From an uncultured archaeon (lineage in GTDB: Archaea > Iainarchaeota > Iainarchaeia > Iainarchaeales > DATDZZ01): 30,074 nucleotides of DNA. Positions 1 to 30,074 of this stretch are shown one piece after another. Made by a program: the position numbers and the translations under genes. The DNA is taken from contig CAYJVY010000005.1 in assembly GCA_964373795.1 (NCBI GenBank), forward strand, positions 69,913 to 99,986. Direction: 5' to 3'. The notes beneath the pieces were generated by a model. It did no database searches. It saw only the letters and a list, made by a program, of their open reading frames with translations, and was not told where the DNA came from. The stretch's first letter is position 1. Each line of letters opens with the position of its first letter.

Positions 1-19
1 CGCCGGCTGAACGGCGCGC
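1..19 (-). repeat. Edge-truncated copy of the GC-rich hairpin element family. Its terminal hairpin (CGCCG-GCTGAA-CGGCG) abuts the 5' end of tRNA-Met.
   Basis: nt 1-16 (cgccggctgaacggcg) are identical to 19093-19108. They match the reverse complement of 6643-6658 at 15/16 positions. The copy continues beyond the left window edge. Strand is given relative to copy A. Confidence 0.6.
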
Positions 20-91
20 GTCAGTGTAGTTTAGTGGCAGAACCCGTGACTCATAATCACGTGATCGGGAGTTCGAATCTCCCCACTGACA
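20..91 (+). tRNA. tRNA-Met (anticodon CAT). Elongator-like; could also be tRNA-Ile2 with a modified CAU.
   Basis: Hand-folded cloverleaf of 72 nt. Acceptor gtcagtg/cactgac, D stem gttt/gaac, anticodon stem cgtga/tcacg with loop ctCATaa, T arm gggag-ttcgaat-ctccc, discriminator A. No encoded CCA. G1-C72 and the lack of a GGG/CCC anticodon stem argue against an initiator. Confidence 0.9.
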
Positions 92-4968: not shown

Positions 4969-5002
4969 ATTTAAATTGAAACTAAACTACTATAAAAAGT
5001 AA

Positions 5003-5124
5003 TGCCCCGACCGGGATTTGAACCCGGGTCTTCACCGAACTCCAACTCTTTGCTAATTTTTGCGAACTTTTTTATAAAAAGTTCTGAGAGGGTGACATCC
5101 TTGACCGGGCTAGACTATCGGGGC
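5003..5124 (-). tRNA. tRNA-Glu (anticodon CTC) with a 47-nt intron at 37/38
   Basis: Acceptor gccccga/tcggggc, anticodon stem tcacc/ggtga, loop ctCTCa|intron, T arm ccggg-ttcaaat-cccgg, discriminator A. Intron 5084..5038 contains a perfect 9-bp hairpin (gaacttttt-ata-aaaaagttc). Exact splice junctions were not verified by a BHB fold. Confidence 0.75.
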
Positions 5125-5198
5125 AAAAACCTGTAAATAAGTTTGTTAGCAAGCTTTAATAATTTTAGTTAAAAACGTTTTCCTTCAAAAATCCTTAA

Positions 5199-6413: not shown

Positions 6414-6566
6414 ACATGATTAAAGAAAAAATTTTCAGAGCCTGCATGAAGTGTGGTTCAACAAACTTGACGCTTCCTCAAACTGCTTGGAAAATTAGAG
6501 CAGGAGTTTTGAAGGAGGCAAAAAATTCATTAAAGAATTGAAAAACAAAAATCAGTAAAAATTTGA

Positions 6567-6640
6567 GGGGTTGTGGTGTAGCCTGGTTAGCATTCAAGCT
6601 TTGGGAGCTTGCGACCTCGGTTCAAATCCGGGCAACCTCA
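6567..6640 (+). tRNA. tRNA-Pro (anticodon TGG)
   Basis: 74-nt cloverleaf. Acceptor ggggttg/caacctc (one G-U), anticodon arm caagc-ttTGGga-gcttg, T arm ctcgg-ttcaaat-ccggg, discriminator A. Confidence 0.9.
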
Positions 6641-6779
6641 TTCGCCGTTCAGCCGGTGTGGCTGAAGCGATCAGCCGGCGAAGCTGAGTGCCCACGTGGG
6701 CATCGTGCTTGCCGCGCGAGACTACAGCTAAAGGCCGACATCGGCCTACGCGTTCGCGGGTGTGACCGCAAGGCAGAGA
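6641..6779 (+). repeat. GC-rich hairpin element, copy A. Candidate structured ncRNA or miniature mobile element.
   Basis: 90/139 G+C by hand count in an AT-rich context. It starts at the first nt after tRNA-Pro and ends 5 nt before the PAP2 ATG. Hairpins: 6648-6666 (ttcagcc-ggtgt-ggctgaa), palindrome TGCCCACGTGGGCA at 6689-6702, cgtgc-ttgcc-gcgcg, and aggccg-acat-cggcct. The 61-nt core 6679-6739 is 56/61 identical to the reverse complement of 19034-19094. Confidence 0.7.
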
Positions 6780-6784
6780 TTTAA

Positions 6785-7660
6785 ATGGTTTTCCAAGAAT
6801 TTTTTGCATTAATTCAGCCAACAGAGATTCAGTTAATTCTTTTTCTGCAAAGCTTTCAAAGCGATTTGCTTAATCTCTTATTTCAAGGAATTACTTTTCT
6901 GGGAAACCCTATTCCTTGGATGTTGTTAGCTGCATTTATTTATTGGAAAGGAGAAGAAAACGAATCGTTTTTTTTATCGAATTTAATTCTTTTAACTACT
7001 GCAATCACTGGAATGATTAAAGTTGGAATTGCAAGGCCCAGACCTTCAAGTGAATTAGTAAAAGTATTGGATGAAACTTATTTTAATTTAAGTTTTCCAA
7101 GCAATCATGCAGCAATAGCTAGTGGATTATTAGGATATTATAGTAAAGTAAAGCATCATTTTGTATGGACGTTACTTGTAATGGCTTTACTTGTAGGATT
7201 GTCTAGAATGTATTTAGGAGTGCATTATTTAAGTGATGTAATTGTTGGATTAATTTTAGGATTTTTTATTGGATTACTTAATTGGAATATTAGGGAAAGA
7301 TTTATTCAACACAAATTTAAGTTAACAAAATTAGTTGATGAAATAGCATTAGTATTAATAGTTCTGTTATTTTTAGTTTCAATTTTTTTTGTAAGCATTA
7401 TAGAATATAGTTCTTCCTTGCTTGGATTTTATTTCGGATTTTTTTTATTAAAGGAAATTGAATTCAATCAATCAAAACTAGAAAACAAAAATTCTTTAAT
7501 TAAAAAACAATTAATTGGATTTTTATTGTTGCTTGGAATAGTTGCACTAGGATTTTATTTAAAAGAGCCATTGATTAAATCATTTGTATTCTTTTTTTCA
7601 GGGCTATGGATTAGTGCAGTTTATCCTTTTTTGTTTGAAAAATTTTCAAACAAAAAATAA
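6785..7660 (+). CDS. PAP2-family phosphatase (phosphatidic acid / undecaprenyl-diphosphate phosphatase-like) with an extra C-terminal TM region
   Basis: The three PAP2 motifs are present: KVGIARPRP, PSNHA and SRMYLGVHYLSDV. Multiple TM helices. Confidence 0.85.
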   Translation: MVFQEFFALIQPTEIQLILFLQSFQSDLLNLLFQGITFLGNPIPWMLLAAFIYWKGEENESFFLSNLILLTTAITGMIKVGIARPRPSSELVKVLDETYFNLSFPSNHAAIASGLLGYYSKVKHHFVWTLLVMALLVGLSRMYLGVHYLSDVIVGLILGFFIGLLNWNIRERFIQHKFKLTKLVDEIALVLIVLLFLVSIFFVSIIEYSSSLLGFYFGFFLLKEIEFNQSKLENKNSLIKKQLIGFLLLLGIVALGFYLKEPLIKSFVFFFSGLWISAVYPFLFEKFSNKK

Positions 7661-8545
7661 TTAATGTGTTTTGAAAACTGATTCAATTTTTTTATCCAAA
7701 TCCGTGTTTACTTCAAAAATGTAGTCAGCTAATTTAAGCAATTGAGAAATTTTTTGCACAATTGAAGGCCCTTTATTTGTTTTAATTAAAATTGTTTTCA
7801 TTTTTTTAGCTAAATCGATGTCTCCATAAGAATCAGTTATTAGAAGAGAATTTTTTGGTGAAAAAATCCAATCCCTTTCTTGACATAAATCTTGAATTGC
7901 TTGAATTTTGGATTTCACTGGAATGCCTTGGATTTCAGTGTTTTGAGTTCCAATAATTGAATTCAAGCCAATTATTACTCCACTTGAATTAAACTTTAAT
8001 TCCGATCCAATTAATCCATCAAATTCGAATTCAAAATTTTTTTTCAAAAAATTGTTTAACATTAAAGCAAAATCAACAGAAGAAAGAGTTGCCAAAATTA
8101 TTTTCGCTTTATGAGTTTCTTTAATTTTTTTTAAAGCTTTAATTAATTTAGTTCTCAAACCAACTTTCACTACTTCTAAAACTTTTTTAAAGTCTTTTTT
8201 AGAGCAATTTCTTTGAGCTAATAAATTGTTTCCCTGAATAATTGCTTCTTCAACTGAAAAATTTCCATCAGCAATTCCTTTAATAATGGATTTATAGAAA
8301 TGCTCTCCCAAAGTTGTTCCGTTCTCAAGTTTTTCTGGATAGACAATTGATAAGGCTTCCATTCCTGCATCTGATTCAAAAACAGTTCCATCCATGTCAA
8401 CAATTACTGTTAAAATGTTGTCAGAGAAGAATCGTTTTTTGAAAGGCCTTCTTCTTCTAAGCTTGAATTCTAAAGAATTTTTCACTACTTGTCCAAGCAA
8501 TCTAGCTTTTGCAAGTCTTTTCCTTAAAGGAATCTTGGATTTCAT
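7661..8545 (-). CDS. HAD-superfamily hydrolase (subfamily IB-like) with a basic N-terminal extension
   Basis: Motif I VDMDGTVF and motif IV-like DSYGDIDLAKK. Its stop codon directly abuts the PAP2 stop (7660/7661). Confidence 0.7.
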   Translation of the reverse strand: MKSKIPLRKRLAKARLLGQVVKNSLEFKLRRRRPFKKRFFSDNILTVIVDMDGTVFESDAGMEALSIVYPEKLENGTTLGEHFYKSIIKGIADGNFSVEEAIIQGNNLLAQRNCSKKDFKKVLEVVKVGLRTKLIKALKKIKETHKAKIILATLSSVDFALMLNNFLKKNFEFEFDGLIGSELKFNSSGVIIGLNSIIGTQNTEIQGIPVKSKIQAIQDLCQERDWIFSPKNSLLITDSYGDIDLAKKMKTILIKTNKGPSIVQKISQLLKLADYIFEVNTDLDKKIESVFKTH

Positions 8546-9356: not shown

Positions 9357-9524
9357 CCCTCCTTAGCTTAGTAGCCAAAGCGTCCGGCTGTAGTTTAAGC
9401 CTTTTCTTTTGAAAAGAAAGTTTACGGCTTTCAAGCCGAGAATGTCAAATGCATTTAAAGTATGTTGGCATGCCGATTTAAAGCGGCGACCGGAAGACCC
9501 CCGGTGCAACTCCGGGAGGGGGGA
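9357..9524 (+). tRNA. tRNA-Tyr (anticodon GTA) with a 95-nt intron at 37/38
   Basis: Exons 9357-9393 and 9489-9524. C1-G72 acceptor ccctcct/agggggg, D arm gctt-agtagcca-aagc, anticodon stem tccgg/ccgga with loop ctGTAg|intron|a, 5-nt variable arm, T arm cccgg-tgcaact-ccggg. The intron has several local hairpins (cttttc-tttt-gaaaag; cggct-ttca-agccg; ggcatgcc). Confidence 0.85.
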
Positions 9525-9680
9525 CATTTTCATTTTTTGGACAAAGAGGTTTTAATAAATGAGAAAATACATTCCTCATTTCATGAAAAAAAAAGAACCT
9601 AAAAGAGAAGTAAAAAAAGAAGAAATAAAATTTAAAACTAGTATGTAAACACTTAAAGAATATAAACTAAATAGAGCTTA

Positions 9681-12384: not shown

Positions 12385-12451
12385 ATTCTTTAAAGCAATT
12401 TCTTTTTGGCAAATTTTCGCCAACTGATTTGTCCACAATTCTATTTTTTAG

Positions 12452-12497
12452 TGTAATACAAATGTATATATATTAATTGTGTTACAATTGTATATAG
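12452..12497. promoter_or_regulatory. Two 20-nt direct repeats (period 26) with a TACAATTGTA dyad. Candidate operator/TATA region of the RHH-PIN operon.
   Basis: TGTAATACAAATGTATATAT (12452-12471) and TGTGTTACAATTGTATATAG (12478-12497) match at 16/20. Perfect 10-nt palindrome at 12483-12492. Located just upstream of the ATG at 12506. Confidence 0.45.
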
Positions 12498-12505
12498 GTG
12501 ATTTT

Positions 12506-12763
12506 ATGGCTTCAACTATTGCCCATGTAAGATTTAACGAACATGAAATTGAGTTTTTGAAAGGAGTTGTAAAAGAAGGGACTTACAATAGCATGAGTGA
12601 CGCAATTAAAACTGCGGTTAGACTAATGGAGTTTAGAAATTTGCAAATGCGCATTGCAACTAAATATAAAGACATGTTCAACTATGACAAGGTAATGAAA
12701 TCTCTTAAGAAAAGTAGAAAAACAGTTTATAGGAAATACTTTGGAAGTAAGAAAAATGATTAA
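12506..12763 (+). CDS. Ribbon-helix-helix (CopG-like) antitoxin
   Basis: MASTIAHVRFNEHEIEFLK... has a beta-strand then two-helix pattern typical of RHH. It overlaps the PIN gene by 8 nt. Start moved from 12479 to the ATG at 12506. Confidence 0.7.
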   Translation: MASTIAHVRFNEHEIEFLKGVVKEGTYNSMSDAIKTAVRLMEFRNLQMRIATKYKDMFNYDKVMKSLKKSRKTVYRKYFGSKKND

Positions 12764-17543: not shown

Positions 17544-18668
17544 ATGCCTAGAATGGAAAGAATTAAAACTGCTTTAAGAAGGCTTGGAGAAAGGATTACT
17601 CCAGCAAGATTTAGAAAACCTGAAAATGCAAGAAGAGTAACAGATGTTTTAAGACAAACTGGTTTTAGGCCAAGAGGATGGTATAGTTTGTTTCAAAAAT
17701 TTGCTCAAACAGATTTTGCTAAAAGAATGGCTCAAGGAATTGGAGAAGTGCCACTTGGAGGAGCTCCATCTCTTTATGTATTAGATATTTTCTTAGTTGG
17801 AGGAAGCAAAAGACTGAGAAGAAAAGAGCTTTCAAAAGCCTTGAAAAAATTATTCATTGACAAGCCAGAGTTAAGAAAAAGACTTGTATTAGATGTATGC
17901 GAAGCATTATATGAAAACCATAAATTTTTAAAAGAAGGAAGTGAAGGAAGAGATTTTCCAATTTATGATAAAAGATTAAGGGAAACAGTTTATGCAACAT
18001 TTGATGAATTATATGACAAACTGCATGAAAAAGATGCAGACAGAAAAAGACATGAAGCAAGAGGAAAAGAATTTTTAAGAGAATTAGTAAGAGACATGCT
18101 TTCAGATCATGATTTTTTAATGAGAATTCCTTTAGGGGAAAGAGAGAAAAGAGTTAGAGCATTAGAACACGTATTAGGAGGACAAAGTGGAAGAATAAGA
18201 GACTATGATGTCAATCAAATTGATTTTGTTAGGGACTCTTTTGAAATATATTTGCCTTTACTAGAAAAATGTAAGAAATTTATTTCAGAAGCAGATAGAA
18301 TGACAAAAATCTTAGGAAACAGGACAAGAATTTATTATTCTTTAATGAAAATGCTTGCATTATCTGAAATAGTTTTACGTAATAATACTGATTTACTGGG
18401 ATTAAATTATCCTGCAAAAAATTTTGAAAAACTAGTGAAACCAGTTTTAGAAGCAAACGAAGAATCAATGGAATCAATTAGAAGGTTTCAAAAAATGTTA
18501 GTAGAAGGCCAAATTAGATTGCCTGAACCAGCTCCACAATTTAAATCCATGCATCCACAAGAGTTTACTGAAATGCAGTTCTTATCAGAACTAGTTAAAG
18601 ATCATTTAAATAAGATTAAAAGAAATGTTGCAGTAGAAGTATTACAAGGAATTGAGGTGAAAAAATGA
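17544..18668 (+). CDS. Hypothetical protein (about 375 aa), function unknown
   Basis: Long ORF. The TATA-like TTAAATATTTT at about 17507-17517 fits a leaderless ATG at 17544 (the track ORF starts at TTG 17517). Arg-rich N-terminus (MPRMERIKTALRRLGERI). Confidence 0.6.
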   Translation: MPRMERIKTALRRLGERITPARFRKPENARRVTDVLRQTGFRPRGWYSLFQKFAQTDFAKRMAQGIGEVPLGGAPSLYVLDIFLVGGSKRLRRKELSKALKKLFIDKPELRKRLVLDVCEALYENHKFLKEGSEGRDFPIYDKRLRETVYATFDELYDKLHEKDADRKRHEARGKEFLRELVRDMLSDHDFLMRIPLGEREKRVRALEHVLGGQSGRIRDYDVNQIDFVRDSFEIYLPLLEKCKKFISEADRMTKILGNRTRIYYSLMKMLALSEIVLRNNTDLLGLNYPAKNFEKLVKPVLEANEESMESIRRFQKMLVEGQIRLPEPAPQFKSMHPQEFTEMQFLSELVKDHLNKIKRNVAVEVLQGIEVKK

Positions 18669-18952
18669 AGAAACAAAAACTTCCTAGAAAAGAAAACAAG
18701 CCTTTAGGAGAAGAGGAAGAAGAAAAAGATATTTACAGTGAAAAAGGAGTTGAAGAAGAATTAGAAGACGATGAAATAACTGCAGAAGAAGCAGGATTCA
18801 TGGAAGGATACGATAACAAAGAATTAATTTGTAAAAACTGTGAAAACGAATTTGATTTAGAAAAAGCAATTGAACGCGACATTAAAGGCAAAGCATATTT
18901 GTTTTGTTCAAAGCATTGTGCCGAAATTTTTAGCAATAAAAACAAGAAATAA
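18665..18952 (+). CDS. Small acidic protein with a TRASH-like C-x2-C-x21-C-x3-C metal-binding domain
   Basis: CKNC ...21 aa... CSKHC matches the TRASH spacing. Poly-Glu N-terminal half. ATGA overlap with the upstream gene. Confidence 0.55.
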   Translation: MKKQKLPRKENKPLGEEEEEKDIYSEKGVEEELEDDEITAEEAGFMEGYDNKELICKNCENEFDLEKAIERDIKGKAYLFCSKHCAEIFSNKNKK

Positions 18953-18962
18953 AAAAAGAAAA

Positions 18963-19110
18963 TTCAGCCACGCTGGCTGAACTTGTCAGCTTCGCCGGTT
19001 GCAATGTCTTGTGCGTCGAGCACGAGGGTCAACGTCGTCCTTCAGCTGTAGTCTCGCGCGGCAAGCGCAATGCCCACGTGGGCACTCAGCCTCGCCGGCT
19101 GAACGGCGAA
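18963..19110 (-). repeat. GC-rich hairpin element, copy B (inverted relative to A)
   Basis: 19095-19110 is the exact reverse complement of 6641-6656. The core 19034-19094 is 56/61 identical to the reverse complement of 6679-6739. Palindrome TGCCCACGTGGGCA at 19071-19084. Hairpin ttcagcc-acgct-ggctgaa at 18963-18981. Lies between convergent genes. Confidence 0.7.
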
Positions 19111-19117
19111 AAGAGTT

Positions 19118-19828
19118 TTACTTTGAAACTCTTTTCTTTACTCCTTCAAATAATTGGTCGAATAATGCTTGGTTTTTAAGAGCTGCTTTAGAAATAGAGT
19201 CTTTCAAACCTAAACCCATTGCTAAACCAAATCCTAATCCAACTGCTACTACTATTGCTGCTACAAATAATTGAAGCAATTGAAGTAAACTGCTTACATT
19301 AATGTTTGGAAGAAACAAAGGTAAAGCAATTACTACAGCCAAATAAAATACTAACAAAGTAACTAGAACAGATAATTGTTTAACAAAAACAAAATGAGTT
19401 TGTTCTAATACTCTTTCAGCATACTTTGAGGCAACTGAAGCAAGTAATAACACAAGCAATCCTTGAACAAGTAAAGGAATATATCCAAGTACTTGTGATA
19501 CAATTACTACCAAATAGTTAACATTAACTAATTGCACTGCTGCTCCTAAGAATGCTAATACAATGTAAATATCAACTAAAATATGAATAACCCAGTTAAT
19601 GCTTACTCTACCAAAAGCTTCTTTTAATCCAACTGAATCAAAGAATTCATTTGCTTTGGATTTATTCAATAACCATGCTAAAACTTTATTCACTACAAAT
19701 GCTACAATTAATCCTAAAACAAAAAAAAGCAATAGGACTACAACTGCAGCAACTATTTGAACGCTTTGTCCAACAACAGCGTTCACAACACTTACCGGAT
19801 CTAATATATTAAAACCATGCGATGTCAA
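19118..19828 (-). CDS. Polytopic membrane protein (conserved-TM-helix / MscS-N-terminal-like, tentative)
   Basis: Repeated long hydrophobic helices. AGGAGG lies 9 nt upstream of the TTG start at 19828. Confidence 0.6.
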   Translation of the reverse strand: MTSHGFNILDPVSVVNAVVGQSVQIVAAVVVLLLFFVLGLIVAFVVNKVLAWLLNKSKANEFFDSVGLKEAFGRVSINWVIHILVDIYIVLAFLGAAVQLVNVNYLVVIVSQVLGYIPLLVQGLLVLLLASVASKYAERVLEQTHFVFVKQLSVLVTLLVFYLAVVIALPLFLPNINVSSLLQLLQLFVAAIVVAVGLGFGLAMGLGLKDSISKAALKNQALFDQLFEGVKKRVSK

Positions 19829-20635: not shown

Positions 20636-20768
20636 TTTGCCGACACGTCCGGCGAGTATGCGCACAGTCTTTGACTGAGCATGCTCACTTCGTTCGCTTG
20701 AAGCCACGCGCGATGAGCGCGAACAACGAGTATGAACAGCAGACGTTAGTGACATGCACAAGTAAGAA
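20636..20768 (+). repeat. GC-rich hairpin element, diverged copy C
   Basis: Collinear blocks shared with A and revcomp(B): TTTGCCG / CCGGCGAG / CTGAG+palindrome (TGAGCATGCTCA at 20686-20697) / CGCTTG..GCGCGA / ACAGC..GACGTT / GCACAAG. Terminal hairpin gccg-acacgtc-cggc. Lies about 50 nt upstream of tRNA-Asp. Confidence 0.55.
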
Positions 20769-20792: not shown

Positions 20793-20819
20793 CAACTTTT
20801 TCTTTGAAAGAAAAAGTTG
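20793..20819. promoter_or_regulatory. 27-nt perfect palindrome CAACTTTTTCTTT-G-AAAGAAAAAGTTG ending 2 nt before tRNA-Asp
   Basis: 13+13 nt perfect dyad checked base by base. Function unknown (processing signal, terminator of the upstream element, or protein-binding site). Confidence 0.4.
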
Positions 20820-23862: not shown

Positions 23863-23909
23863 TTCTGTTTTGGCACAGCGTTTTTAAGGCGAATTGAGGC
23901 AATTTGTTT

Positions 23910-26297
23910 ATGGAAATAGAAAAACCCGAATTACTAGCTCCAGTAGGAAACAAAGAGCATTTATATGCAGCAATAAACAATGGAGCAGACGCTGTTTACT
24001 TAGGATTACAAGCATTTAATGCAAGAATTGGAGCAGATAATTTTTCAATGAAAGAATTAAAAGAAGCAGTAGATTTTGTTCACCTACAAAGAAAGAAAGT
24101 ATACATAACATTTAATACTTTGTTAAACGATTTAGAACTCCCACTTGTTTTGGATTTGGTTAAACAGGTTTACGAAATAGGAGTTGATGCATTAATTGTT
24201 CAAGACTTGGGATTAATTTTTGCTGTAAGAAAACTTTTGCCTGAAATGGAATTGCATGCTTCAACTCAAATGACTGCACATAATTCTTTAACTGTAAAGT
24301 TCTTGAAAGAATTAGGAATTAAAAGAATTATTTTAGCAAGGGAAAATTCATTGCAAGAAATTAAAGAAATCAAAAACAAAACACATGCTGACTTGGAATG
24401 CTTTGTTCACGGAGCAATCTGCATTGCTTATTCAGGGCAATGCACTGTTTCAAGTCTTTCATTTAAACGCTCTGGAAATAGAGGCAGATGTGCTCAAAAC
24501 TGTAGACTAAACTATAATTTGGTTGGCAATGGAAAAGCATTAAAGCATGGTTATTTAATTTCTGCAAAAGATTTAAATGCAGTTGAATTAATTCCTGAAC
24601 TAATTAAGGCAGGGGTAAACTCGCTTAAAATTGAAGGAAGAAAAAAATCAACTGAATACGTTGCAATTACAACAGCTGTTTACAGAAAAGCAATTGATTC
24701 ATATTTTGATTCAAACATTAAAGTAAGTGAAGAGGATTTAAAGGCATTAAAAGTAGCTCATGTAAGAGAATTCTCTTCAGGACATTTTAAAGGACAAAAC
24801 AATGAATTAGTTAAAGAAGATTTTCCTGGAAAACAAGGACTAGAAATTGGAAAAGTTTTATCACAAAAAGATGGAGTTACAAAAATCAAACTAGTAGAAG
24901 AATTGCTTGCTTGGGAAACGCTTGCCGTAAAACAAGGCGGAGAAAGAATGGAATTCAAGGCAAGAGAACTTTACAAAAACAATCAAGAAATTGACAAAGC
25001 TTTTGCTGGAAGCATTGTTGAATTACATATAAAAGACAAACTCTTGCCAGGGCAAATTGTTTTCAAAATCCAATCCAGAAAGCTAACCAATTTTGCTTAT
25101 GCCAGTATTACGCGAGTAAAAAAAATTCCAGTAAAATTTCTTGTAACAGCAAACAATAAAGAATTCAAGTTAAAAGTTTTCGACAAAGACACAGTTGTTG
25201 AAATTGTTTCAGATTTTGTGCCAAAAAAAGCAGTAAAAGGTTTGGATAAAAAAGTCTTGGAAGAAAAAATTTCCAAAACAGGAAACACATTACTTGAATT
25301 ACAAGAAATAGAAATAAAATTAGAAGAAGAATTACTGTTACCATTCAGCAAGGTAAATGATTTACGTAGAAAAGCAGTTAACGCATTTAAAGAAAAAAAA
25401 TTAGAAAAATTCAGAAAAAAAATTGATGAAGAAATTTTTGCCAAAGAAAAAGAAAAATTATTCAAAGAATCAGAAGACAAAAAATTCATTGAACTCATGG
25501 AAGGCATACCGGGAAAACAAAAATTTGAGATATGCATTGGAAGCAAAAACCAATTACAAAAAACACTTGAATTAAATCCGTTTAGCATTGTTTTGCCTTT
25601 GCATTGGAGCATTGAAGAACTTGTTTCAATTCAAGAATTACTGAATTCCAAAAAAATAACTCCAATTATTAGCACTAACGCAATACTGAAGGATTCAGAA
25701 TTAGATTCCACTTGTAAAAAACTTGAAGAATTGCGTTGCAATGGAAACATTTTTGTTGAATGCAATAATCTTGGCCTCTACAAGTATTTAGTTGACAATG
25801 GCTTTCCAATAATTGTTGGACAAAACATGAATTCATTCAACTCTGTTGCTGTAAACTTTTTTGCGGAAAACTCAATGGCTGTTACTCTTTCAAGAGAACT
25901 GAATTTTAAACAAATTGAGTTATTGAGAAAAAGAACTAATGCATATATAGAGCTTGCATTATTTGACTTGCCTGAAATAATGCTCATAGAGTCAAACATT
26001 TTAAAGCAATTCAATGTGCCCAAAAAAAAAGCAATTCTTATTGATAGAAAAAATTGGAAATATTTAATTAAAACAGATGAATTTAACAGAACACAGTTAT
26101 TCAACCCTGTTTACTTGAACATGATTCCTGAATTAGAGAAATTCCAAAACTTTGCTGACATCCTTAAAGTAAATGTTTCTGATTTATCTGACAATGAAGC
26201 CTTTAAAGTCTTAGACTCATTAAAAGAAAAGCTTTCAGGAAAAAAAGCATTCATTTCAACAGCATTTACTCGTGGATCTTATGAAAAAGGAGTTTAA
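23910..26297 (+). CDS. U32-family protein, long form (RlhA/YdcP-like architecture)
   Basis: PELLAPVGNKEHLYAAINNGADAVYLG N-terminus. U32 signature ECFVHGAICIAYSGQCTVS plus NRGRCAQNC Cys cluster. About 400-aa C-terminal extension. A TTG at 23904 is possible. Confidence 0.85.
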   Translation: MEIEKPELLAPVGNKEHLYAAINNGADAVYLGLQAFNARIGADNFSMKELKEAVDFVHLQRKKVYITFNTLLNDLELPLVLDLVKQVYEIGVDALIVQDLGLIFAVRKLLPEMELHASTQMTAHNSLTVKFLKELGIKRIILARENSLQEIKEIKNKTHADLECFVHGAICIAYSGQCTVSSLSFKRSGNRGRCAQNCRLNYNLVGNGKALKHGYLISAKDLNAVELIPELIKAGVNSLKIEGRKKSTEYVAITTAVYRKAIDSYFDSNIKVSEEDLKALKVAHVREFSSGHFKGQNNELVKEDFPGKQGLEIGKVLSQKDGVTKIKLVEELLAWETLAVKQGGERMEFKARELYKNNQEIDKAFAGSIVELHIKDKLLPGQIVFKIQSRKLTNFAYASITRVKKIPVKFLVTANNKEFKLKVFDKDTVVEIVSDFVPKKAVKGLDKKVLEEKISKTGNTLLELQEIEIKLEEELLLPFSKVNDLRRKAVNAFKEKKLEKFRKKIDEEIFAKEKEKLFKESEDKKFIELMEGIPGKQKFEICIGSKNQLQKTLELNPFSIVLPLHWSIEELVSIQELLNSKKITPIISTNAILKDSELDSTCKKLEELRCNGNIFVECNNLGLYKYLVDNGFPIIVGQNMNSFNSVAVNFFAENSMAVTLSRELNFKQIELLRKRTNAYIELALFDLPEIMLIESNILKQFNVPKKKAILIDRKNWKYLIKTDEFNRTQLFNPVYLNMIPELEKFQNFADILKVNVSDLSDNEAFKVLDSLKEKLSGKKAFISTAFTRGSYEKGV

Positions 26298-27259: not shown

Positions 27260-28525
27260 CTACCAATCAATTTGAATTAATTGATGAGTGTTATTTTCAT
27301 GCAAAGGTTTTTCTATTACAAATAATTTGTCGTTCTCGCGAACGCGTTCATTTACTTTTAAAGCAATTAAAGCTCCTTTTTTTGCTGACTGAATTGCTTC
27401 ATTGCTTACTTGAATTGATTCAACTTTTTGCCTAAAAAACCCAGTAGTATCTCCAGTAATCATTACATCTTGATTTAATTCTAAGTTCCCTGCTTCTAAT
27501 AAAATTTCTGCAACAGAAATTTTTCTGTAAAACTTTTTCACTACTCCAATATAACGTTTTTGCTCTGTTGCTTTCGAACCATAAGTTGCACTCCAAGAAT
27601 CTAAAGGTTGCCCTAAAAAATGCCCTGAAGAAAAACCTCTATTATAAACTCTTTCCAAACGAGAATGCAATTCTTTTTTTAATTCAAAAGAATAACGATT
27701 TTCTTGAATTGCATTTAATGCTTCACGATAAGCATTCACTGTTTCAAACACATAGTCTGCGGAGCGAGCGCGGCCTTCAATTTTAAATACATCAATTCCT
27801 GCTTCAACTAATTTGTCAACAAAATCAATTGTTGAAAGATCTTCAGGAGACATAATGAAATGATTTTCAATCTTCAATTTATTTCCTTCATCATCTGTAA
27901 CAGTATAAGCTCTTCTACAGTTTTGCACGCACTCTCCTCTATTCGCAGATTTACCTGAAGTAAAATGACTCATAAAACATCTTCCAGAAACTGCAACACA
28001 TAATGCTCCGTGAACAAAGCATTCAATTTCAATTAATCTTCCATTAGGGCCTTTCACGTTTTCTGCAATAATTTTTTCTTTAATGTTTTTAATTTGCCCC
28101 AAGTTTAGCTCTCTTGCAAGAACAACTCTGTCAGTGAATTGAGAAAAAAACTTTAATGCTTCAAAATTTGCAATGTTTTGCTGAGTAGAAATATGCACTT
28201 CCAAGCCTAGCTCGCGAGCCTTGCGAATAACAGCTAAATCTGAAACAATTACTGCATCAACCTTTGCTTTTGCAGCTTTTTCTAAGATTTCATTCATTAA
28301 AGGAAGATCTGAATCAAAGATAACTGAATTCAATGCCAAATATGCTTTCACTTTGCTTGAATGACATTGTTTTACAACTTTAGGCATTTCTTCAAGTGAA
28401 AAGTTTTTTGCTCCTCCTGCACGCATGTTTAGAAAACCTATTCCAAAGTAAACTGCGTCCGCTTTAGCTTTAATTGCTGCACTTAAAGATTCAAACGATC
28501 CAGCTGGAGCCAATAATTCAATCAT
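27260..28525 (-). CDS. U32-family protein, short form (YegQ/TrhP-like architecture)
   Basis: MIELLAPAGSFESLSAAIKAKADAVYFG. Signature ECFVHGALCVAVSGRCFMS plus NRGECVQNC. 421 aa. Confidence 0.88.
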   Translation of the reverse strand: MIELLAPAGSFESLSAAIKAKADAVYFGIGFLNMRAGGAKNFSLEEMPKVVKQCHSSKVKAYLALNSVIFDSDLPLMNEILEKAAKAKVDAVIVSDLAVIRKARELGLEVHISTQQNIANFEALKFFSQFTDRVVLARELNLGQIKNIKEKIIAENVKGPNGRLIEIECFVHGALCVAVSGRCFMSHFTSGKSANRGECVQNCRRAYTVTDDEGNKLKIENHFIMSPEDLSTIDFVDKLVEAGIDVFKIEGRARSADYVFETVNAYREALNAIQENRYSFELKKELHSRLERVYNRGFSSGHFLGQPLDSWSATYGSKATEQKRYIGVVKKFYRKISVAEILLEAGNLELNQDVMITGDTTGFFRQKVESIQVSNEAIQSAKKGALIALKVNERVRENDKLFVIEKPLHENNTHQLIQIDW

Positions 28526-29014: not shown

Positions 29015-30074
29015 GTGTTAAAAAAAATAAGTTTTTTATTTTTTATACTAATTTTAAGTTCTTTTGCTAGTGCATTAACCCCTCCAACTATAAGCATTTC
29101 AACAGATGTAACTGAAGTGCAAGCAGGAGGAAAAATAACTGTAAGCGTTACAGGAAAAGACGATAAAGGAATTGGCTTGCTTTGGTGGCAGGGAAATGCA
29201 ACAGGAATTACAGAGCTTGACACAAAAAAAGAATCTCCTTGCAGTATAAATCCTTGTACACTTAAATGGCCTATAACAATTCCTTCAACAGCTAAAGCTG
29301 GAACATATGTATTGAAAGGATATGGATACGATAATGAAAAAATTCAAGGAATTGAAGCCTCAACAAAAATCACTATTACAGCTGCAAGCACTAGCACTAC
29401 TTCTACTACAACAACTGATGGCCCTCCAACTGTAACAATTTCAGTAGACAAAACAAGTGTATTAGTTGGAGAAATTTTTACAATAAATGTAACAGGAAAA
29501 GACGATGTTGGACTGAATATGATTTGGTGGTATGGAGATGCAACACCAGATGCAAACCTTAACAGAGCAACAACTACTTCTTGTAATAGTGCAACAACTT
29601 GCAGTTCTAAAACAACTATTTCAACTCAAATTCCTGGAACATTCAAATTCGGAGCAAACTCTAGAGACACATTATATGGAACAACTACAGGAATAGGAAA
29701 ACCACATCAAGCATCTGAAAATACAGGATTAGGAGGAGGATTGCAATTTGTTACTGTAACAGTAAACAAACCAACTTCAAGTTCCATTGTTGGAGCAAAT
29801 TGTTTAAACGGAGTAAAAGATTACGATGAAACAGGAATAGACTGCGGAGGAGCATACTGTAAAGCCTGTACTACAACAATTGATTCAAATAAAACTACTA
29901 CAACAGATTCAAATAGAACTACTACAACAACAATTGATTCAAATAAAACAACTTCAACTTCTCCTGGAGCAAATTGTTTAAACGGAGTAAAAGATTACGA
30001 TGAAACAGGAGTGGATTGTGGAGGAGCATACTGTAAAGCCTGTACTACAACAATTGATTCAAATAAAACTACTA
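29015..30074 (+). CDS. Large secreted surface protein (partial, continues past the window end): duplicated roughly 110-aa domain plus Thr-rich linkers and repeated Cys-rich modules
   Basis: Not in the ORF track because no stop is reached. GTG at 29015 follows an in-frame TGA at 29006-29008. Signal peptide VLKKISFLFFILILSSFASA. Two paralogous domains (PPTISISTD..ITVSVTGKDDKGIGLLWWQGNAT / PPTVTISVD..FTINVTGKDDVGLNMIWWYGDAT). Modules GANCLNGVKDYDETG[IV]DCGGAYCKAC. Confidence 0.75.
   Translation, partial: MLKKISFLFFILILSSFASALTPPTISISTDVTEVQAGGKITVSVTGKDDKGIGLLWWQGNATGITELDTKKESPCSINPCTLKWPITIPSTAKAGTYVLKGYGYDNEKIQGIEASTKITITAASTSTTSTTTTDGPPTVTISVDKTSVLVGEIFTINVTGKDDVGLNMIWWYGDATPDANLNRATTTSCNSATTCSSKTTISTQIPGTFKFGANSRDTLYGTTTGIGKPHQASENTGLGGGLQFVTVTVNKPTSSSIVGANCLNGVKDYDETGIDCGGAYCKACTTTIDSNKTTTTDSNRTTTTTIDSNKTTSTSPGANCLNGVKDYDETGVDCGGAYCKACTTTIDSNKTT
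29792..30074 (+). repeat. 174-nt (58-codon) tandem repeat inside the surface-protein gene
   Basis: 29792-29900 and 29966-30074 are near-identical (differences only in ata gac tgc versus gtg gat tgt). The shorter ACAACAATTGATTCAAATAAAAC linker motif recurs between them. Confidence 0.85.

Follow-up and report, generated by a model that had tools for sequence, protein, structure and literature searches.

A Family of GC-Rich Palindromic Repeats in a DPANN Archaeon, with Two Copies Bordering Intact tRNA Genes

The window considered here, the whole 30,074-nt stretch of archaeal DNA that was analysed, holds three copies, S, A, and B, of one repeat family. The repeat is ~135–150 nt long and ~60% GC, against ~30% for the genome. 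Its copies lie in both orientations, share the exact border CGCCG, and are absent from the public collections searched, and the two tRNAs that border S and A are intact. We propose, with a probability of roughly 0.6, that S, A, and B are a lineage-restricted family of GC-rich mosaic palindromic repeats of the MITE or REP/BIME type. Each copy would be a chain of hairpin-forming palindromes, a non-autonomous dispersed repeat that spread as mobile or recombining DNA and that occupies, and completely fills, short spacers of a streamlined DPANN (Diapherotrites/Iainarchaeota-like) genome. After insertion, S would have to be transcribed as part of pre-tRNA-Met, in which it forms a long 5′ leader, and A would serve as the tRNA-Pro trailer and the leader of a PAP2 gene, both presumably to be trimmed by RNase P/RNase Z.

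Copies of the Repeat

The features on which the argument turns are the following.

1–16, minus strand: terminus (16 nt) of copy S, which the contig start truncates; it corresponds to the 5′ terminus of copy A
17–19, no strand assigned: CGC, a 3-nt linker that joins copy S to tRNA-Met at its 5′ end
20–91, plus strand: tRNA-Met(CAT), complete, no encoded CCA; found by ARAGORN; Rfam tRNA score 69.3 bits
6567–6640, plus strand: tRNA-Pro(TGG), complete, discriminator A73 at 6640; found by ARAGORN; Rfam tRNA score 55.4 bits
6643–6778, plus strand: copy A, which follows tRNA-Pro and leaves 6 nt to the PAP2 start codon (ATG at 6785)
18962–19108, minus strand: copy B, between the convergent genes 18665–18952 (plus) and 19118–19828 (minus)
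19108–19136, minus strand: 11-bp perfect AT-rich host hairpin, which holds the stop codon of ORF 19118–19828 and abuts the CGCCG terminus of copy B
20636–20768, no strand assigned: GC-rich island C, 52 nt upstream of tRNA-Asp; not a family member

The preliminary description of this DNA had placed a 16-nt word at the left edge of the window, 3 nt ahead of tRNA-Met, and its reverse complement 2 nt after the tRNA-Pro discriminator. Both placements hold. The word CGCCGGCTGAACGGCG occupies positions 1–16 and is followed by CGC (17–19) and by tRNA-Met(CAT) at 20; its reverse complement, with one mismatch, lies at 6643–6658 and begins 2 nt past the discriminator at 6640. Thus the same terminus does face the 5′ end of tRNA-Met, in copy S, and the 3′ end of tRNA-Pro, in copy A. 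An exact copy of the 16-mer is also found at 19093–19108, within copy B, a full copy that the preliminary description overlooked. This copy is 1.7 kb from the nearest tRNA and lies 9 nt from each of the two stop codons that flank it. The 16-mer, which is a hairpin by itself (CGCCG-GCTGAA-CGGCG), has three matches in the window at up to two mismatches, against 0.00 expected from shuffles.

Since copy S is cut by the contig start, its reach to the left had to come from elsewhere, and the possibility had been raised that it would prove unrelated to the repeat beyond the 16 nt. This is not what was found. Logan contig L033 (ERR4904390) takes copy S 14 nt further left, with GATCGCTTCAGCCA upstream of window position 1, so that the contig reads GATCGCTTCAGCCA, CGCCGGCTGAACGGCG, CGC, and tRNA-Met in turn. 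All 30 known nucleotides of copy S can thus be compared, and 29 of the 30 are identical to the reverse complement of copy A at 6643–6672; copy S is therefore a genuine copy. The Logan contig of ERR3478686 begins at the same base as the window and brings no leftward gain. In the same run, unitigs L010 and L005 overlap by exactly 30 nt (k = 31), and the node that they share starts right after the single difference between A and S. It follows that copies S and A probably share at least 45 nt.

Anatomy, Folding, and Classification

Read in the orientation of copy A, all three copies open with CGCCG. This border is followed by hairpin units of the TTCAGCC-N5-GGCTGA type, 17–19 nt long, of which there are two in A and S and one in B; in copy A they lie at 6648–6665 and 6671–6687. 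Next come the palindrome TGCCCACGTGGGCA (perfect in copy A, at 6689–6702), a 6-bp stem, TCGYGC/GCGCGA, then GACTACAGCT, and one more hairpin. In copy A, the stem reads TCGTGC/GCGCGA and precedes the hairpin GGCCGA-CA-TCGGCC and a divergent 3′ part. Copy B has a divergent middle, after which two hairpin units stand at its far end. A and B are 93% identical over a 72-nt core, and 85% over a longer match of 89 nt; identity then falls, and the 3′ parts are unrelated. The repeat is, then, a mosaic of palindromic modules whose hairpin units differ in number and position.

Both strands of the repeat are predicted to fold about equally, with z-scores on the two strands of −2.98 and −2.81 for A and −1.43 and −2.11 for B, as DNA palindromes do. 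On the other hand, among the differences between A and B, four one-sided substitutions preserve base pairs (as G·U) on the A(+) strand alone, and there is one compensatory pair. These wobble-preserving changes, drawn from two sequences only, hint at a strand-specific constraint, acting on RNA or on single-stranded DNA.

The last observation bears on another explanation, namely that the repeat is a multi-copy structured small RNA, read in the sense of A(+) and B(−), co-transcribed behind a tRNA or behind the 3′ hairpin of an mRNA, and released by enzymes of the RNase Z type. The four wobble-preserving changes and the compensatory one do favor the A(+) strand, the MFE z-scores reach about −2 to −3, and GC-rich islands are conspicuous in a genome of 30% GC. 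Moreover, A stands directly behind tRNA-Pro with no T-tract between them, and B(−) stands directly behind an ORF and is then followed by T-runs. Several points speak against it. Copy S runs antisense to tRNA-Met and leaves no space for its own promoter; folding is no weaker on the opposite strand; and covariation drawn from two sequences carries very little weight. Conservation does not extend to the 3′ halves of A and B, and the variable parts are complementary to nothing in the window. No Rfam family matches, and there is no homologue in the relatives. Taken together, these points make a small RNA rather improbable. A guide-like role for the variable 3′ parts was considered separately and rejected, as nothing in the window, tRNAs included, is complementary to them.

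The palindromic-repeat reading is supported by the border word itself, present in three copies where chance would give none, and by the lack of any consistent orientation of the repeat relative to neighboring transcription units. Several dispersed, near-identical, non-coding copies are a hallmark of MITEs, and S, A, and B are such copies. Extragenic imperfect palindromes of ~20–40 nt arranged in mosaics are a hallmark of REP/BIME sequences, and here, too, all three copies are intergenic mosaics of such palindromes, with units of 17–19 nt. Against the palindromic-repeat reading, just three copies are visible, one of them incomplete, and the two A-like copies adjoin their tRNAs through one and the same terminus; in addition, no transposase is found among the window ORFs scanned, no clean empty site was seen, and the G·U changes are strand-biased.

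The resemblance to the REP/BIME sequences of bacteria extends to short GC-rich imperfect palindromes that are strictly extragenic, often past gene ends or between convergent genes, and to a modular build in which hairpin units vary in number and orientation. The present family differs in its archaeal (DPANN) host, in the unrelated sequence of its unit, in the absence of a RAYT/Y1 transposase from the window ORFs scanned, and in its 3, perhaps 4–5, known copies, so the kinship to REP/BIME is one of likeness in kind. Archaeal MITEs, such as the SM elements of Sulfolobus and the PATEs of haloarchaea, are non-coding, dispersed, and ~100–300 nt long. Like the present repeat, they occur in both orientations, and short-read assemblies break at them. 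It differs in that no terminal inverted repeat is common to all its copies, and neither a verifiable target duplication nor a parent IS was found. TTCAGCC-N5-GGCTGA stands near both ends in B, whereas A has it only at the CGCCG end, twice, and lacks the right-hand unit; A and B have no clear terminal inverted repeats in common. The flanks are A/T runs (GAAAA/AAAA at B and ATT/ATTT at A), in which a target-site duplication is indistinguishable from chance.

Complementarity of the tRNA Flanks

The plus-strand flanks of tRNA-Met and tRNA-Pro are complementary because one repeat, present as S and as A, adjoins them in opposite orientations. This complementarity covers at least 30 nt and probably spans the whole part that S and A have in common. 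The preliminary description had noted the complementarity between the tRNA-Met leader and the tRNA-Pro trailer. A duplex of at least 30 bp is indeed predicted, and yet it follows trivially from the inverted repeat. In the cofold model, it appears as a plain 30-bp helix with one G·U, joined through 3-nt linkers (AUU and CGC) to intact acceptor stems and cloverleaves.

It is tempting to read such a duplex as functional, that is, as pairing between the pre-tRNA-Met leader and the pre-tRNA-Pro trailer analogous to the joining of split tRNAs in Nanoarchaeum or to rRNA processing stems, and the first of these parallels had in fact been drawn. The modelled flanks can pair over at least 30 bp with a single G·U, and S is almost certainly transcribed as a leader if tRNA-Met is expressed. 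The split-tRNA system is, however, defined by tRNA halves whose annealed leaders give a bulge–helix–bulge motif (BHB) at the leader–exon boundary (PMC4033280), and no BHB appears in the cofold at either junction. The tRNAs concerned are whole, as the preliminary description had judged by appearance and as ARAGORN and Rfam bear out (69.3 and 55.4 bits), and they are unrelated, with different anticodons. In addition, strong same-strand hairpins within each flank compete with pairing in trans, and copy B has the same sequence without a tRNA. The Nanoarchaeum-type reading was therefore abandoned, and we regard a functional leader–trailer duplex of any kind as very improbable.

The likeness to the split-tRNA pairs of Nanoarchaeum equitans (PMC4033280) is limited to GC-rich complementary sequences directly beside tRNA DNA in a tiny, AT-rich archaeal genome. 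In the present case, by contrast, each tRNA is complete and the two differ in identity. Their junctions fall at the acceptor ends rather than in the anticodon loop, no BHB forms, and the sequence is a dispersed repeat found away from tRNAs too. The complementarity of the flanks is a by-product of the repeat, not a processing device.

Position Relative to tRNA Genes and Hairpins

The preliminary description had offered, as its alternative, a DNA-level element that targets the borders of tRNA genes. That a dispersed repeat is involved is supported by the copies themselves; that it targets tRNA genes is not established. Without their elements, the spacers would measure 6 nt (A) and 16 nt (B), against a median spacer of 47.5 nt in the window. 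Since the elements fill very short spacers, the ends of the repeat necessarily lie within a few nucleotides of gene borders. Of the 42 spacers, 11 border a tRNA, and these make up 19.5% of spacer length; the chance that at least two of three copies adjoin a tRNA is P ~0.10–0.17, or 0.05–0.085 if the same terminus must face the tRNA. At P ~0.10–0.17, an association with tRNAs is not established. Only two of the three true copies adjoin a tRNA, the GC-rich island near tRNA-Asp being unrelated (see below), and 10 of the 12 tRNA borders in the window have no element. Three copies are too few to show tRNA targeting; perhaps two of them merely happen to border tRNAs, or the repeat mildly prefers to do so.

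Adjacency to tRNA genes also invites the explanation that the copies are remnants of plasmids or viruses that once integrated with tRNA genes as their attachment sites. Two copies do adjoin tRNA genes and are foreign to the host in base composition. However, one of the two abuts a tRNA 5′ end, and B lies away from tRNAs altogether. No duplicated tRNA fragment (att repeat) is present at the flanks, and, matches within the family aside, the repeat has no 11-mer in common with a tRNA. No integrase or other foreign gene is nearby among the window ORFs scanned, and the IMG/VR, phage, and plasmid collections gave no match. We therefore consider this origin highly unlikely.

A different regularity is seen if the copies are placed in the orientation of A: S, A, and B all start 0–3 nt 3′ of a helix end. 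For A, this is the tRNA-Pro acceptor stem followed by ATT; for S, the acceptor stem of antisense tRNA-Met followed by GCG; for B, the 11-bp hairpin at 19108–19136. Accordingly, insertion directed by structure or by terminators stays as a minority hypothesis. Under it, in single-stranded DNA or RNA, the CGCCG end would be placed 0–3 nt 3′ of a stable helix, and tRNA acceptor stems, in either orientation, and terminator-like hairpins would be the preferred sites of a tiny non-autonomous element in a DPANN archaeon. The helix end precedes all three copies, perfect hairpins whose stem reaches 10 bp or more are rare (five loci only in the window), and A and B both lie in T-runs directly behind a gene end.

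Group IIC introns sit behind terminator hairpins, and elements of the IS1111-attC group also seek hairpins. The repeat resembles these structure-seeking elements in that each of its three copies has one terminus directly 3′ of a stem-loop; it differs in being ~140 nt long with no ribozyme or protein-coding capacity, and at n = 3, the analogy is one of placement only. Adjacency to tRNAs, moreover, is enough to produce two of the three cases, and that adjacency is not significant; the tRNA borders are empty in 10 of 12 cases. Both orientations occur within one stretch of uniformly rising GC skew, and the window contains no candidate for the enzyme. Gene-end hairpins also seem common here: a perfect AT-rich hairpin with a 12-bp stem (20793–20819) stops 1 nt short of the tRNA-Asp 5′ end, and another, with a 14-bp stem (7627–7657), lies at the junction of the convergent genes 6785–7660 and 7661–8545. 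These two hairpins may be terminator or processing signals. Structure-directed insertion is, on balance, unlikely, less so than the small-RNA explanation. If confirmed, it would be a rare archaeal case of structure-guided insertion and would show a compact genome channelling mobile DNA into safe sites.

The GC-Rich Island Upstream of tRNA-Asp

The preliminary description had counted the island at 20636–20768 as a third copy of the element, by tRNA-Asp. It is not alignable with the element: its local alignment score to A and B is 16–19, against 114 for A with B, it has no 10-mer in common with either, and an nhmmer profile of A and B finds no match there at E ≤ 10. The island was accordingly rejected as a copy, and the true third copy is the one at 18962–19108, which is not adjacent to a tRNA.

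Island C is ~55% GC and has several palindromes of its own, among them GAGCATGCTC and CGCGC-GATGA-GCGCG. It has no match in Rfam, and none of its 10-mers recurs elsewhere in the window. Because Logan contig L009 ends within it (20654–20683), island C may be a second repeat family or else an uncharacterized RNA gene.

Distribution of the Repeat

The window is AT-rich, ~30% GC, with a handful of GC-rich islands. It has the traits of archaeal DNA, with tRNA genes of 72–74 nt without encoded CCA, intron-containing tRNAs, and genes for DUF2666 and TRASH-domain proteins. The best named homologues of its DUF2666 protein belong to Candidatus Diapherotrites/Iainarchaeum MAGs and are only 49–60% identical. 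Thus, the host is a DPANN archaeon without a close sequenced relative in the collections. Our gene map of the window combines the ORF list, Logan gene calls, and tRNA scans, and it was from this map that the 42 spacers and their median were taken.

The repeat was absent from every collection searched. In the GTDB representative genomes, an exact 20-mer search found no copy, with two chance matches in bacterial sequence; in JGI metagenomes, a 20-mer gave nothing, and an 18-mer gave 13 chance matches in GC-rich contigs. Four patterns searched in IMG/VR returned chance matches only, with no extended nhmmer match, and blastn against plasmids and phages found no match to the repeat. Translated in one frame, and then in six concatenated frames, the repeat had no match among 5.8 billion proteins. 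With Rfam 15, at the gathering threshold and at E ≤ 10, only tRNAs pass, the best other matches having E values of 0.2–9. No transposase domain or RAYT (Y1 transposase) was found in the 20 window ORFs that were scanned.

The repeat is likewise absent from all loci examined in relatives, where homologues are 49–60% identical. In two of them, L014 and L015, spacers of 6 and 28 nt separate DUF2666 from PAP2 (L014 10441–10448; L015 10444–10473), with neither tRNA-Pro nor the element between the genes. In the window, these genes are split by a 41-codon CxxC ORF, tRNA-Pro, and copy A, which together occupy 6417–6778. Because DUF2666 and PAP2 are adjacent in the relatives, the block made of the small ORF, tRNA-Pro, and the element would be a lineage-specific insertion.

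Logan unitigs (k = 31) break exactly at the border of the repeat, the last 30-mer of L009 starting with CGCCG and the first 30-mer of L033 ending with CGGCG. These breaks define the border, and they suggest that further copies with other flanks exist. Three copies, one of them partial, are known, and the number may be 4–5. The Logan contigs of three metagenome runs contain whichever copies they cover, with no clean filled/empty polymorphism among them. At the left border of copy B (~18958–18962), contig L007 (ERR3478686; 9966–9972) ends in GAAAAAG where the window has GAAAATTCAGCC. The 2 nt concerned, AG, are too little to interpret; they could open an empty-site allele, or be no more than an error tip.

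Consequences for Neighboring Genes

If the palindromic-repeat reading is true, the window reveals an uncatalogued repeat family in a Diapherotrites-like DPANN genome, one that breaks short-read assemblies. The family mimics the signature of split tRNAs, and this should serve as a warning for scans that seek complementary tRNA flanks.

The insertions would also have consequences for expression. Upstream of the other tRNAs, the sequence is AT-rich, whereas for tRNA-Met no A/T-rich, promoter-like sequence occurs in the 33 nt known on that side; judging from this composition, transcription of tRNA-Met probably passes through S and yields a long precursor. Copy S would thereby displace the tRNA-Met promoter by the 33 nt known at least, and probably by the whole element, giving pre-tRNA-Met a long, structured leader. 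As for copy A, no T-tract lies between it and tRNA-Pro, and PAP2 starts 6 nt past its end, so that A is probably both the tRNA-Pro trailer and the PAP2 leader.

Other Features of the Window

Two tRNA genes of the window contain introns. The first, tRNA-Glu(CTC) on the minus strand at 5002–5125, has an intron of 47 nt and an Rfam score of 50.9 bits, and ARAGORN finds it only with introns allowed; Logan contigs L001 and L010 break within it. The second, on the plus strand at 9357–9525, has an intron of ~95–105 nt and is missed both by ARAGORN with default settings and by Rfam at the gathering threshold. With introns allowed, ARAGORN calls it Asp(GTC), and the anticodon loop read by eye, CTGTAG, suggests Tyr(GTA). 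Relative L014 has a homologue of this tRNA at 12451–12647, also with a long intron.

At the right edge, positions 29605–30074 hold tandem and direct repeats within an ORF that leaves the window, with 110-nt units that are 96% identical and Thr-codon-rich sub-repeats of 24–36 nt; the product is probably a repetitive surface protein. Finally, two peptidase U32 paralogues lie on opposite strands, at 23904–26297 (plus) and 27260–28525 (minus), and have a 48-nt stretch in common with 77% complementarity (24389–24436 and 27984–28031).
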